DNA from: Eledone cirrhosa
Lineage: Eukaryota
Reading direction: 5' to 3'
Length of the DNA stretch: 64,000 bases
NCBI GenBank assembly: GCA_964016885.1
Contig: OZ024754.1
Coordinates: 34,534,001-34,598,000 of the forward strand
Positions 14,785 to 63,983 of the stretch are shown one piece after another (the stretch's first letter is position 1; each line of letters opens with the position of its first letter). Below the pieces are notes generated by a model, which worked only from the letters and a program-made list of their open reading frames with translations, was not told where the DNA came from and ran no database searches. The position numbers and the translations under genes were made by a program.

Positions 14785-15322
14785 AGAGAGTATTGAAGTT
14801 TGCTTGAAGCATTGTGGAATAATAAGGTAAATTTCTTTAAGTTGTTTGGAAGCTTCGACAATGCAAATGGGTAAATCTCCGGGTAACAAGGTCCGGTGGT
14901 GGAGAGAGAGATGTAAGTGGGTGTACGTTGAGATGCGTGGCGTGTATAAGACGTGTAGAGGAATGAAGGAAAGAGCGTAAAGGATAAAAATAAAAATAAA
15001 ATGAATATTCAAAACAACGAACAGCGGAGGACACGTTTCGCACCTTTCCGACAGACAACCCCCCCCCCCCCCCCCGGAAAAAAACCCCAGTTGATGGATA
15101 TGAATCCGAAATATATAGGGACAATTAAATCTCTCCCAAGGTAACTCTCTCTCGTGTTGTTATTTTTATCCTTTACGCTCTTTCCTTCATTCCTCTACAC
15201 GTCTTATACACGCCACGCATCTCAATGTACACCCACTTACATCTCTCTCTCCACCACCGGATCTTGTTACCCGGAGATTTACCCATTTGCATTGTCGAGG
15301 CTTCCAAACGACTTAAAGAAAT
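14785..15322. mobile_element. Fold-back element in (TA)n, ~165-bp inverted arms; probable Penelope-like-derived
   Basis: 14831-14996 is the reverse complement of 15159-15322; the spacer contains GCGAAACGTGTCC on the minus strand; (TA)n on both sides; related copy at 17149-17605. Confidence 0.7.
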
Positions 15323-16129
15323 ATATATATATATTTAAATTTATTAGATAGGAACTGGAAGCTTGTGTATGTATGTGTGTATCATCGACATCATCATGTA
15401 ATGTCCGTTAAGTAATGATGATGATACATCATACATATCAATCGTTTATTTTTCTGGGGGACTTTTAATTGTTTTAGTTAAGCTTAATGATAAAACCTTA
15501 ATGATGTATTGTTTAAATTTGCTTGTTTTCCAACTTTCTGTCTGTCTGTCTACCTTTCCTGTTGAATGACCGTTGCTCTGTAGTCCTGCAGTGAATGCGT
15601 TCAGCATATTTAGCTGTCGCAAGGTGGTCGTGGAGGTGCCACGGCAAAAAAAGCACCCAGCCCACACTGTAAAGTGGACGTGTAGGCGCCACGAAAAAGC
15701 ACCCAGCACTCACTGTAAATGAGGTTTGTGTTTGGAAGGGCATCCAGCTGTAGAAATCAAGCCAGAATCAGTTCCTGTATGAACAAGGCATGGTCAGCCG
15801 ACCAGACACTGCCCACAACAGGACAACCCGTCTAACACATGCTAGCGTGGAAGAACGGACGTAAAACGGTGATGATGATGAACTGATACCAACAGCATTG
15901 CAGGAAAGCTGAACAACGTAATTCAGGAAAACCATTTATTCTGTTCTCTACACAACTTCTAAGCTAGCCACTACATGGTAGATTCTAAGTTTAAAGTCTG
16001 TCTCAAACCTGGAGGCTCATCAGATCAGTGCTTATCCTAGTTTCTGTGGCATGAAGCAACCAAGACTACAAGACTCCCCTTCTCTAATTGTATCATCTGC
16101 CCTCCCTCCTAGTAACCCACACCACTGGC

Positions 16130-16332
16130 CATGACACACTTGTGTTACACATGGGGCTGCGACAACCCTGAGCTACACCAGGAGCAGTAACACTCTTGAG
16201 CTACACATGTAGCTGTGACACCCTTGAGCTTCACCTGTGGCTGTGACGCCCCCCCCCCCCCCCCCGGTTACATAAGGGGCTGTGACACCCCTGCGTTACA
16301 CAAGGGGCTGTGACACCCCTGGGCTACACATC
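16130..16332. repeat. Degenerate 28-bp minisatellite (GTGACACCCCTGCGTTACACAAGGGGCT) running into the gap
   Basis: Period 28 between 16282 and 16310; about six more diverged units upstream. Confidence 0.75.
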
Positions 16333-16336
16333 AATC

Positions 16337-16536
16337 NNNNNNNNNNNNNNNNNNNNNNNNNNNNNNNNNNNNNNNNNNNNNNNNNNNNNNNNNNNNNNNN
16401 NNNNNNNNNNNNNNNNNNNNNNNNNNNNNNNNNNNNNNNNNNNNNNNNNNNNNNNNNNNNNNNNNNNNNNNNNNNNNNNNNNNNNNNNNNNNNNNNNNNN
16501 NNNNNNNNNNNNNNNNNNNNNNNNNNNNNNNNNNNN
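16337..16536. other. Assembly gap (200 N)
   Basis: Run of N. Confidence 1.
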
Positions 16537-16710
16537 AAGAGCTCCTTTGCCCTTTGACAGGTTTTGTTTTTAGTCCTGCAGGATGTCCAAAGTCACCCTC
16601 CTCACCAAGAAACCTTGGTGGGGTTGCCAGTTTAGTCGCCAACGACCCGACCATGGGACAGGTTGTACTGGGATACATGTTACCAGTAGCACCAACTGGT
16701 GACCTGACAT
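16537..16710. repeat. Unclassified interspersed repeat; inverted copy at ~28103-28265
   Basis: CCCTTTGACAGGTTTTGTTTTT..TCCTGCAGG...CTCACCAA...TACATGTTACCAGTAG...GACCTGACATA matches the reverse complement of 28103-28265. Confidence 0.7.
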
Positions 16711-59348: not shown

Positions 59349-59547
59349 ACGGCCGTGTAGGCAACACGGTAAAAACCTCCCAGCCCCACACTGTAAATGT
59401 GGTTGGTGTTAGGAAGGGCATCCAACTGTAGAAAACCCGCCAGACAGTCTTATGCGAGCAAGACAACCACTCTTGCCTCAAGTGGGAAAACCCCCGTCCA
59501 AACCCATGCAAGCGTGGAACACGGACGCTAAACCTGATGATGATGAT
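59349..59547 (+). mobile_element. RTE 3'-end fragment
   Basis: Matches the reverse complement of 1-112 and of 61598-61775. Confidence 0.85.
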
Positions 59548-62500
59548 ATATGTATATATATATATGTGTATATATGTATATATATATGTATATATATGTG
59601 TATATATGTATATATATGTGTATGTATATATATATATATATGTGTATATATGTGTATGTATATATATATATGTGTATATATGTGTATGTATATATATATA
59701 TATGTGTATATATGTGTATGTATATATATATATAGGTGTATATATGTGTATGTATATATATATGTGTATGTATGTATATATGTGTATGTATATATATATG
59801 TGTATGTATGTATATATGTGTATATATATATATATGTGTATATATATATATATGTGTATGTATATATATATATGTGTATGTATATATATATATGTGTATG
59901 TATATATATATGTGTATGTATATATATATGTGTATGTATATATATATGTGTATGTATATATATATGTGTATGTATATATATATGTGTATGTATATATATA
60001 TGTGTATGTATATATATGTGTATGTATATATATATGTGTATGTATATATATATGTGTATGTATATATATATGTGTATGTATATATATATATGTGTATGTA
60101 TATATATATATGTGTATGTATATATATATATGTGTATGTATATATATATATATGTGTATGTATATATATATATGTGTATGTGTATATATATATATATGTG
60201 TATGTGATATATATATATATGTGTATGTGTATATATATATATATGTGTGTGTATATATATATATATGTGTATGTATATATATATATATGTGTATGTATAT
60301 ATATATATATGTGTATGTATATATATATATATGTGTATGTATATATATATATATATATATGTGTATGTATATATATATATGTGTATGTATATATATATAT
60401 GTGTATGTATATATATATATGTGTATGTATATATATATATGTGTATATATGTGTATGTATATATATATGTGTATGTATATATATGTGTATATATGTGTAT
60501 GTATGTATGTGTATGTATATATATATGTGTATATGTGTATGTATATATATATGTGTATGTATGTGTATGTATATATATGTGTATGTATGTGTATGTATAT
60601 ATATATGTGTATATGTGTATGTATATATATATGTGTATATATGTATATATATATGTGTATATATGTATGTATATATATATGTGTATATATGTATGTATAT
60701 ATATATGTGTATATATGTATGTATATATATATGTGTATATATGTATATGTGTGTATATGTGTGTGTATATATATGTGTATATGTGTATGTATATATATGT
60801 GTATATGTGTATGTATATATATGTGTATATGTGTATGTATATATATGTGTATATGTGTATGTATATATATGTGTATATGTGTATGTATATATATGTGTAT
60901 ATGTGTATGTATATATATGTGTATGTATATATATATGTGTATGTATATATGTGTATGTATATATATATATGTATATATATGTGTGTATATATATGTGTGT
61001 ATATATATATATGTGTATATATATATGTGTATGTATATATGTGTATGTATATATGTGTATGTATATATGTGTATGTATATATGTGTATGTATATATGTGT
61101 ATGTATATGTATATATATGTGTATGTATATATATGTGTATGTATGTGTATGTATATATATGTGTATGTATGTGTATGTATATATATATGTGTATGTATAT
61201 ATATGTGTATGTATGTGTGTGTATGTATATATATATGTGTATGTATATATATGTGTATGTATATATATATGTGTATGTATATATATGTGTATGTATGTGT
61301 GTATGTATATATATGTGTATGTATATATATGTGTATGTATATATATGTGTATGTATATATATATGTGTATATGTGTATGTATATATATATGTGTAGGTAT
61401 ATATATATGTGTATGTATATATATATGTGTATGTATATATATATATATGTATATATATGGTGTATATGTGTATGTATATATATATGTATATGTATATATA
61501 TATATATATAGTGTATATGTGTATATGTGTATGTATATATATATATATGTGTATGTATATGTATGTATATATGTGCATGTATGTATATATGTGTATATCA
61601 TCATCATCGTTTAACGTCCGTGTTCCACGCTTGCATGGGTTTGGACGGGGGTTTTCCCACTTGAGGCAAGAGTGGTTGTCTCGCTCGCATAAGACTGTCT
61701 GGCGGGTTTTCTACAGTTGGATGCCCTTCCTAACACCAACCACATTTACAGTGTGGAACTGGGAGGTTTTAAACCATATATGTATATATATCTATATGTA
61801 TGTATATATATGTATATCTATATGTATGTATATATATGTGTATGTATTTATATATGTATGTATACATATATATATAAACACATATATATATATATACACA
61901 CATACATATATATACACACATATATGTATGTATGTATGTATATATACATATGTATATATAAATGTATATATATGTATATGTATGTATATACATTTATATA
62001 TATATACATATATGTATATATATATACATTTATATATATATACATATATGTATATATATATATACATATATGTATATATATATACATATATGTATATACA
62101 TATATGTATATATATATATACATATATATATACATATATGTATATATATATATACATATATATATACATATATGTATATATATACATATATATATACATA
62201 TATGTATATATATATATATATGTACATATATATATATACCAGGTGGTGCTATTATATATATATATATATATATATATATATATATATATTATATATATTA
62301 TATATATTATATATATTATATATATATACATATATATATATATTACATATATATATGTACATATATATATATACCAGGTGGTGCTATTAAGTTAGACATG
62401 GCCTGGGCCAATACTGGCCAAAACATTTCAAAGTTATTCAAAGTTATATATGTATATATATACATATATATATGTATATATGTATATATATATATATGTA

Positions 62501-63728
62501 TATATGTATATATATATACATATATATATGTATATATATACATATATATATATGTATATATATACATATATATATATGTATATATATACATATATATATG
62601 TATATATATAAATATATATATATGTATATATGTATATATACATATATATATATGTATATATATATGTATATATATACATATATATATATGTATATGTATA
62701 TATATATGTATATGTATATATATATGTATATATGTATATATATATGTATATATATATACATATATATATATATGTATATATATATGTATATATGTATATA
62801 TATATGTATATATATATACATGTATATATATATGTATATATATATTTGTATATATATATATATATATGTATATATATATTTGTATATATATATATATATA
62901 TATATATATGTATATATATGTATATATATATGTATATATATGTATATATATATGTATATATATATATATGTATATATATATATATGTATATATATATATA
63001 TGTATATATATGTATATATATATATATGTATATATATGTATATATATATGTATGTATATATATATGTATATATATATATATGTATATATATATATATGTA
63101 TATATATATATATGTATATATATATATATGTATATATATATGTATATATATGTATATATATATGTATATATATGTATATATATGTATATATATATGTATA
63201 TATATATATATATGTATATATATATGTATATATATATATATGTATATATGTATATATATATGTATGTATATATATATGTATATATATATGTATATATATA
63301 TGTATGTATATATGTATGTATATATGTATATATATATGTATATATGTATATATATATGTATATATATATGTATATATGTATATATATATGTATATATATA
63401 TGTATATATGTATGTATATATGTATGTATATATGTATATATATATATGTATATATATATGTATATATATATGTATATATGTATGTATATATGTATGTATA
63501 TATGTATATATATATATGTATATATGTATATATGTATGTATATATGTATATATATATATGTATATATGTATATATATATGTATATATATACATATATATA
63601 TATATATGTATGTATATATATATGTATATATATATATGTATCATCATCATCATCATTTTACATCCGCTTTTCCCTGCTTGCAAGGGTGGGACTATACATA
63701 TCTATATATATATATGTATATATATACA
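59548..63728. repeat. Compound (TA)n/(TGTATG)n microsatellite arrays with small inserts
   Basis: Direct inspection; another array at 58826-59346. Confidence 0.97.
61598..61775 (-). mobile_element. RTE 3'-end fragment
   Basis: Near-identical inverted copy of 59370-59547. Confidence 0.85.
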
Positions 63729-63729
63729 T

Positions 63730-63983
63730 ATATATATATATGTATATAAGGATTAGAATACTGGAGCGTGTTGGAGTTAAACACCCTCTTCGTATTATAG
63801 AAATTACAGTAAAAGGTATAGCTCAATGCAGTTCCACAGAGCCAAAAAATTAAGAGAGTAAAACAAAGAATCCTTTAATACATCAAAAGTTTTTATTAGC
63901 CGACAATGTTTAATAGGACGAAACATTGTCGGCTAATAAAAACTTTTGATGTATTAAAGGATTCTTTGTTTTACTCTCTTAAT
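63730..63983. mobile_element. Fold-back element in (TA)n, 63-bp perfect arms, hammerhead 3' half at the apex
   Basis: 63849-63911 / 63921-63983 inverted; GAAAC-ATT-GTC at 63920-30. Confidence 0.65.

Follow-up and report, generated by a model that had tools for sequence, protein, structure and literature searches.

Palindromic islands in (TA)n tracts of the Eledone cirrhosa genome are probably short insertions of five Penelope-like element families

Six short palindromic islands in a 64,000-nt stretch of the Eledone cirrhosa genome (GCA_964016885.1, contig OZ024754.1, positions 34,534,001 to 34,598,000; hereafter the window) are most probably short insertions (stubs) of five families of Penelope-like elements (PLEs), in which paired pseudo-LTR (pLTR) ends lie in (TA)n and are likely to have been made anew, through the parent's enzyme, each time an insertion occurred. 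Each island consists of the parent's pLTR end present twice, head to head, with a tail on one arm. An initial annotation had connected the islands with hammerheads, with PLEs and with (TA)n as a target, which agrees with the parents and the TA flanks found here. Its proposal that palindromic ribozyme retroelements form a new class is not upheld, since all five families enter PLE reading frames and the hairpins are not passed on whole. The candidate class is removed, and five PLE families are annotated.

Each of the six islands proved to be an inverted duplication at the position given for it, with TA-type flanks throughout. The identity between arms ranges from 86 to 99%, with 97% for island 1 (14831-15322), 91% for island 2 (17433-17604), 86% for island 3 (22045-22400), 99% for island 4 (30371-30738), 96% for island 5 (31703-31806) and 95% for island 6 (63849-63983). 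Similarity at the DNA level is confined to the pair of islands 1 and 2, as described before, and the six islands represent five dispersed repeat families (F1, F3, F4, F5 and F6). A general repeat search of the window gave output dominated by TA tracts. The unique extension that had been reported as usual on one side was present in five of the six islands, but in island 2 the forward arm is instead shortened at its 3' side. Island 1 (F1) is composed of a 5'-truncated tail-bearing arm (14785..14996, -), the tail of which (14787-14812) codes for MLQANFNTL, the opening residues of a PLE ORF, and a short arm (15001..15322, +) that begins near the start of the pLTR and extends as far as the fixed inner end. 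The short arm of island 2 (F1; 17149..17511, -) extends to the pLTR start, where the forward arm (17526..17605, +) begins. Island 3 (F3) combines a tail-bearing arm truncated within the hammerhead (21911..22187, -; tail ~21911-22044) with a short arm from the pLTR start (22188..22400, +), island 4 (F4) a short arm (30371..30553, -) with a tail-bearing arm (30554..30823, +; tail 30739-30823), and island 5 (F5) a short arm (31703..31758, -) with a tail-bearing arm (31752..31888, +; tail ~31807-31888). The tail-bearing arm of island 6 (F6; 63745..63916, -; tail ~63749-63848) is truncated within the hammerhead and is followed by a short arm (63912..63983, +).

When the families were searched for at the ends of PLE ORFs, a check that had been suggested with the annotation, copies of all five ran on into PLE reading frames. 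The islands are thus ordinary truncated PLE ends, a case that the annotation had itself named as refuting its proposal, and their description as stand-alone non-coding elements was not confirmed. The parent ORF of F1 contains Pfam RVT_1 and GIY-YIG, those of F3, F4 and F6 carry a CxCX5C linker and GIY-YIG-like motifs, and the F5 pLTR leads straight into a related reverse transcriptase (RT) ORF. For F4, the parent has an uninterrupted frame of 821 amino acids, in which YRDD and GIY-YIG-like motifs were recognised by eye. The RT of F3, F4 and F5 was not recognised by Pfam, and among F3-F6 a Pfam GIY-YIG match (E=0.001) was obtained for F6 only. The F4 protein showed a 23% match to the F1 protein (E=5e-9), and a homologue search with it returned 24 unnamed proteins. 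Tandem pLTRs, with a pLTR entering the ORF, were found at L309 (F4), L444, L445 and L446 (F1/F1b) and L301 (F5). The hammerhead lies within the pLTR and is canonical in F3-F6, with a variant core in F1.

SDKT and RLRW[T/R]A motifs are present in F3 and F4, RIRWRA was read from F5 DNA, and the corresponding region is missing from the F6 copies retrieved. F3, F4 and F6 have the CxCX5C linker and the endonuclease CxxC and CxH motifs and no CCHH, and the F5 copy ends before the linker. By motifs compared by eye with reference proteins, the predicted parents of F3, F4, F5 and F6 are Hydra-type PLEs. The F1 parent, in which DKG, a C-x4-C linker and CCHH are present, is a canonical DKG/CCHH PLE, with Neptune and Nematis as candidate clades. 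The Naiad clade, characterized by an N-terminal GIY-YIG and no canonical hammerhead, was rejected, as the GIY-YIG endonuclease is C-terminal in F1, F3, F4 and F6.

The core CUGANGA...GAAA...UH with three stems is satisfied by predicted motifs of islands 3, 4 and 5, and not by those of islands 1, 2 and 6. Complete canonical cores were identified on both arms of island 4 (30632-30698, +, tail-bearing arm; 30411-30477, -, short arm) and on the short arms of island 5 (31708-31758, -) and island 3 (22188-22336, +; type I with a long stem II). The hammerhead on the tail-bearing arm of island 5 is without the 5' strand of stem I, and island 6, including its short arm, contains the 3' half only. CTGANGA is absent from both strands of islands 1 and 2, which have a variant core only, at 15088-15120 (CAGTTGA) in the short arm of island 1 and, decayed, at 17362-17394 in that of island 2, which also carries a 38-bp tandem duplication. 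The claim of a full or partial hammerhead in each island therefore holds for islands 3, 4 and 5 and, as a half, for island 6, but not for islands 1 and 2. An antisense hammerhead-like string in F1 (CTGTCGG...GAAACGCGTC) was rejected, as it has neither a core nor a stem I.

Enrichment of hammerheads was controlled with block-wise dinucleotide shuffles. A strict descriptor found 2 motifs versus 0.13 in the shuffles (a count reached by 1 of 60 shuffles), an offset-relaxed descriptor 2 versus 0.32 (4 of 60), and a permissive descriptor, written post hoc on these data, 4 versus 0.11 (0 of 100). An Rfam scan gave 705 matches, and the 150 of them that were listed included no hammerhead model; they were microRNA models, mostly on TA repeats and in a few cases on island hairpins. 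Transcripts had been expected to be both self-cleaving and double-stranded, which is mutually conflicting: in whole-island folds of islands 4 and 5 the hammerhead core is fully paired.

F1, the family of islands 1 and 2, has the non-canonical core CAGUUGA in 2,599 exact copies and the canonical core in 0. Its sister family F1b (69% protein identity) has the core CCGUUGA with a compensated stem II. The core of these families departs from the conserved sequence at two positions, and stem II shows two compensatory pairs. L442 is a relative with the canonical core. This core (C-A/C-G-U-U-G-A) differs from those of metazoan PLE hammerheads, and the double change was not found in the accessible portion of Cervera and de la Pena (2014, PMC4209133); it may already be in print. 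Judged from sequence, it is conceivable but rather unlikely that the F1/F1b core is a new natural hammerhead, still cleaving (perhaps protein-aided) or serving as a structural signal, and that the stubs, in their thousands, would be paired 'strong-stop'-like cDNAs recording the in vivo transcription start and both RT starts of each family. Whether cleavage by PLE hammerheads is needed at all could be tested cheaply on the variant core.

The arm without a tail stops at a family-fixed inner site. In tail-selected samples, the outer end of the short arm lay at -99/-100 in 8 of 9 copies for F6, at -78 to -86 in 20 of 23 for F4, at -65 to -82 in 12 of 14 for F5 and at -35 to -50 in 7 of 8 for F1, and the ends are located either in the 5' leader of the ORF or within its first codons. 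Long ORF-bearing loci had the same short arm, inverted, at their far end in 5 of 8 cases for F3 and in 3 of 7 for F6. In a separate count for F3, 3 of 4 'inverted arms' were dropped as low-complexity matches. In four of the five families the inner ends gather at the pLTR start, as expected for cDNAs reaching the RNA 5' end, at TC|AGAT in F1, TC|ATTA in F3, TC|ATAT in F4 and CC|AGCT in F5; F6 shows no such clustering. None of the inner ends was seen at the ribozyme cut site; their position is upstream of the core. One F4 22-mer had 11,147 exact matches. With regard to a possible cap-derived G at the 5' end, the F4 start was preceded by G in 2,111 of these 11,147 arms and by A/T in 2,151, and among 30 of the G-preceded cases many could be attributed to the partner arm, to a C of the parent read from the opposite strand or to an internal complementary stretch. 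A splice-acceptor origin of the start point was rejected, as the upstream sequence varies among copies. A (TA)4 was found within 20 nt of the 3' end in 111 of 126 copies versus a background of ~6%, and 87 of 97 copies of F3-F6 lie in (TA)n; we infer insertion into pre-existing (TA)n.

The junctions differ from copy to copy. Recurrent variants occurred in both arms rather than in one arm in F4 (170 versus 47, with 27 of the 47 in the junction column) and F5 (40 versus 20), and concordance was weaker in F1 (73 versus 89) and F3 (11 versus 11). Since junctions vary and the arms of a copy have subfamily variants in common, it is concluded that the hairpin is not inherited as a unit and was likely rebuilt at each insertion, although concordant arms would also result from gene conversion, or if young palindromic masters were the source. 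In the proposed route, the GIY-YIG endonuclease would cut both strands of a TA-rich target, and each free 3' end would prime reverse transcription at one of two internal starts near the ORF start, the one-sided tail being the stretch between these two sites. Each cDNA would extend toward the RNA 5' end, often as far as the pLTR start, and the two cDNA ends would be joined via short overlaps. The hammerhead would be a passenger within the pLTR, and stubs would not spread as hairpins. The tail, the inverted 5' copy and the (TA)n bias are known for PLEs (Craig et al., 2021, PMC8557442), and cleavage and extension of both strands, with a tail that corresponds to the stretch between two internal RT starts, have been reported (Frangieh et al., 2024, PMC11167929). 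As a large collection of in vivo insertions, the stubs document how PLEs integrate, in a geometry consistent with the one in vitro study.

With the same identity as PLE ends, the inverted arm could have arisen by snap-back self-priming of one cDNA or antisense template, for which we see perhaps a modest chance. Snap-back is proposed for Adineta PLEs in the accessible portion of Arkhipova et al. (2013, PMC3846280), and fits the variants common to both arms. The F4 junction insertions C/CA/CAT/CATG match an internal complementary stretch, as does one F4 forward arm restarting at ~+45, and for several of these insertions cDNA self-priming fits equally well. However, the longer arm at the junction can be either one, many junctions have unequal truncations or gaps, a second RT start accounts for the fixed stop of the short arm better than stopping at random would, and the PAc enzyme extends both strands in vitro (PMC11167929).

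A reading of the palindromes as non-autonomous elements whose transcripts re-insert as complete hairpins, the class of the initial annotation, is far less probable. In its favour, one common junction is found in ~28 copies of F4 and in ~29 of F5, with 98-100% identity, and the near-identical F4 copies count against rebuilding. These one-junction samples, however, came from queries reaching the junction, whereas tail-only or positional samples gave many junction types; common junctions are also the outcome of two arms reaching the same start point, and no recurrent arm-specific variant was found in F4 and F5 outside the junction and end columns. Assembly fold-back artefacts are the least credible origin, even though none of the contig or read pieces listed bridged the junctions of this locus: the arms differ by 1-14% and end at family-fixed sites, and numerous loci across many contigs show the same structure. 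DNA sequencing runs cover the families.

The anatomy, the (TA)n targeting and the pLTR hammerheads are already published, and the stubs, read as rebuilt PLE ends, are a known by-product and no new element class. Hydra PLEs are listed for Octopus (Hydra-1_Obim, Octopus bimaculoides, File S1; Craig et al., 2021, PMC8557442). The Hydra-type families studied here are similar to the Hydra clade of that work in the C-terminal GIY-YIG, DKT, the RW-motif, the CxCX5C linker without CCHH, the canonical hammerhead and the (TA)n insertion, and to PLEs in general in the inverted 5'-truncated copy with a one-sided tail. They differ from the described Hydra clade in comprising at least four distinct families, some with 3' regions of 2-3.5 kb, in tails of ~65-135 nt compared to 30-40, and in very high stub numbers, as counted above for the F4 22-mer. 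As far as the accessible portions of Arkhipova et al. (2013) and Frangieh et al. (2024) extend, canonical EN+ PLEs likewise have a pLTR overlapping the ORF start, and their insertions a single-arm tail, a palindromic head-to-head junction and a tail between two RT start sites, but in most inverted units here no ORF separates the arms, and the pLTR start is often where both of them end. The short palindromic stem III and the bulge after A9 are found in metazoan PLE minimal type I hammerheads as well, and dispersed solo hammerheads are reported in the same accessible part of PMC4209133, as are dual motifs on opposite strands with a spacing of 100-700 bp. Animal non-LTR retrozymes, in the portion available of bioRxiv 10.64898/2026.07.22.740005, are also non-coding and PLE pLTR-derived with a type I hammerhead, but they form head-to-tail tandem arrays, whereas stubs are head-to-head pairs or solos. 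Membership in this group was rejected, as each copy stands alone, is paired head to head or terminates an ORF-bearing element. Stubs in introns would form long hairpins in host pre-mRNA and are possible editing substrates.

Solo hammerheads had been noted at 28619, 31023 and 52569. The last (52569..52604, -) is a minimal type I motif of an old dispersed family and passes the permissive descriptor, and the first (28619..28689, +) is a decayed copy, again of an old dispersed family, relatives of which have intact stems I and III. No linked frame for a parent ORF of these two was found in 40 loci. The remaining one (31025..31063, -) is hammerhead-like with a weak stem I and is doubtful; a relative of it, L070, immediately follows a reading frame that was recognised by eye as GIY-YIG-like.

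After masking of microsatellites, which make up 24% of the window, itself part of a 3.0-Gb assembly, self-BLAST recovered all six hairpin-shaped inverted duplications reported in the initial annotation (islands 1-6; 14785-15322, 17149-17605, 21911-22400, 30371-30823, 31703-31888 and 63730-63983). Their arms are 86-99% identical, TA-type flanks are present at all six, and, as had been stated, only islands 1 and 2 match one another. A full or partial hammerhead had been claimed for each island; complete canonical type I motifs were found in island 3 (one arm, stem II of ∼115 nt), island 4 (both arms) and island 5 (one arm). 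In island 6 just the 3′ half of the motif is present, and islands 1 and 2 have no canonical motif, CTGANGA being absent from both. Enrichment of hammerheads in the window over shuffled controls was modest with two pre-set descriptors (2 vs. 0.13, 1/60 shuffles; 2 vs. 0.32, 4/60) and clear with a permissive descriptor drawn up afterwards (4 vs. 0.11, 0/100).

All six islands belong to dispersed families (F1 for islands 1 and 2, and F3, F4, F5 and F6 for islands 3 to 6), and these families lead into reading frames of Penelope-like elements (PLEs). Upstream, F1 copies continue into a frame that carries RVT_1 and GIY-YIG. Where two copies lie in tandem, 3.3 kb apart, the ORF between them is nearly complete and has DKG and CCHH motifs; its first codons (MLQANFNTL) are encoded by the tail of island 1, an extension found on one arm only. 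F3 and F6 copies likewise continue into PLE-type frames, and the short inverted arm of the window copy recurs at the far end of 5/8 long F3 and 3/7 long F6 loci. At one F4 locus (L309) two direct pseudo-LTRs (pLTRs) enclose a frame of 821 aa without interruption, and in one F5 locus (L301) the pLTR leads into a reverse transcriptase (RT) frame related to that of F4. F3, F4 and F6 have the motifs diagnostic of the Hydra clade where that region is preserved; F5 has an RW motif and ∼44% identity with the F3 RT. Pfam did not recognize the RTs of F3, F4 or F5, and the comparison with Hydra-1_Obim (PMC8557442 supplement) was made by eye. The F3, F4 and F6 frames have N-rich insertions; similar ones are described for Adineta PLEs. 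At a further F3 locus (L165, G000:C1:239119300-239128500) a 795-aa uninterrupted frame lies within an inverted arm.

The islands are real and explained as ends of PLE families, and a new class of element is not supported; the families are newly described, their kind is already known. PMC8557442 describes the inverted 5′ copies, the tails, the targeting of (TA)n and the hammerheads of the Hydra clade; PMC4209133 reports dual hammerheads on opposite strands 100-700 bp apart, and the review PMC6765202 mentions promoters in pLTRs. A literature search combining octopus, Penelope and hammerhead gave no paper on these stubs.

When copies were sampled by tail sequence alone, 7/29 F1, 23/29 F4, 14/29 F5 and 9/29 F6 copies had an inverted arm beside them, as did 1/10 F3 copies after three low-complexity matches were dropped. 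Palindromes are thus one outcome beside solo and long copies; since top-scoring matches were taken, these samples are biased to young copies. The outer end of the short arm is fixed in each of four families, at −99/−100 in F6 (8/9), −78 to −86 in F4 (20/23), −65 to −82 in F5 (12/14) and −35 to −50 in F1 (7/8). (TA)4 was found within 20 nt of the 3′ end in 111/126 copies vs. ∼6% of random non-repeat positions. One F4 22-mer occurs 11,147 times in the genome, and its first 100 matches listed include, counted by eye, ∼15 short fold-back pairs and 16 long inverted pairs; the corresponding count among the matches listed for F1 was 8 and 8.

The inner ends of the arms gather at one site in F1 (TC|AGAT), F3 (TC|ATTA), F4 (TC|ATAT) and F5 (CC|AGCT). 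In a positional F4 sample, 18/30 arms end at the site, 11/30 continue into the parent and 1/30 ends ∼6 nt upstream. An arm ends within 2 nt of the site in 9/29 F1 copies and within 10 nt in ∼19/29 F5 copies. Of 46 F3 anchor matches, 24 read through, and in 22 the match to the parent is lost no more than a few bases away from the site. No cluster was seen in the tail-selected F6 sample. The site resembles an initiator, and in F5 TATAAAT lies 29 nt upstream; it would be the pLTR transcription start. The inner ends of F3 and F5 may also result from RT stalling at the 5′ edge of the ribozyme, and a cap-derived G, which was sought at the inner ends, could not be demonstrated.

Recurrent variants lie mostly in both arms in F4 (52 palindromes; 170 in both vs. 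47 in one, 27 of the latter in the junction column) and F5 (44 palindromes; 40 vs. 20, with 13 in end columns), and junctions differ between copies (some arms overlap by 2-4 nt, others meet bluntly, and short insertions or unequal truncations also occur), which favours rebuilding at every insertion. In F1 (73 vs. 89) and F3 (11 vs. 11) this signal is weaker, and F6 lacks it. Variants shared by both arms could also come from gene conversion or young masters, and ∼28 F4 copies with one common junction count against rebuilding. The islands are PLE ends and combine fixed arm ends, variable junctions and TA flanks. In a mechanism modelled on an anole PLE, both strands of the target would be cut, the cut strands would prime cDNA from two internal sites close to the ORF start, and the cDNAs would extend toward the 5′ end of the RNA before their ends are joined. 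For the anole element it is reported that both strands are cleaved and extended, that two start sites bound the tail and that ribozyme cleavage is not required (PMC11167929). The main rival to two-strand priming is formation of the inverted arm by self-priming (PMC3846280).

The transcripts had been expected to be both double-stranded and self-cleaving. A read-through transcript would indeed form a long hairpin, but in the predicted whole-island fold every core position of islands 4 and 5 is base-paired (probability of being unpaired 0.0 vs. 0.21 and 0.32 for the single arm), and self-cleavage of these whole islands is therefore unlikely; in island 3 the value stays at 0.63. F1 keeps all hammerhead features except the core, which is CAGTTGA (2,599 exact matches vs. 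0 for the canonical core). In its sister family F1b (69% protein identity, 1,511 matches) the core is CCGTTGA in most of 30 copies sampled and stem II is GGGC/GCCC where F1 has GGAT/ATCC; one rarer relative has a canonical CTGACGA core. With only two lineages, selection on the variant core is thinly supported. U4C and A6C are known natural variants of low activity (PMC3088659), and the F1/F1b core has more likely lost cleavage than kept it.

Among other features of the window, 54300-54464 (+ strand) is a probable exon of a MARK/Par-1-type kinase; Pfam gave no match for its 55-aa piece, and the islands upstream may lie in an intron of this gene. At 34501-34647, tblastn using the F4 protein picked up a weak PLE RT remnant (E = 1e-4). 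The short fold-back at 25100-25230, matched in 49 fetched loci and often adjoining other PLE ends, is probably one more PLE end. Older, decayed inverted repeats at 52356-52490 (arms 78%, CTGATGA on both strands) and 45539-45832 (arms 82%) had no relatives among the fetched loci. Minisatellite arrays occupy 10769-14251, 44587-44845 and 57920-58616, and many-copy SINE-like dispersed repeats with a (TGA)n end occur at 14346-14593, 15621-15884, 29973-30217 and elsewhere. At six loci (L021, L044, L059, L067, L070 and L420) PLE ends from different families are stacked in each other's (TA)n tails, forming composite islands. The flanks of various loci contain many more hammerhead families, with a TATA-type palindromic stem III and stem I ATTTTAT/ATAAAAT, which points to many more PLE families.
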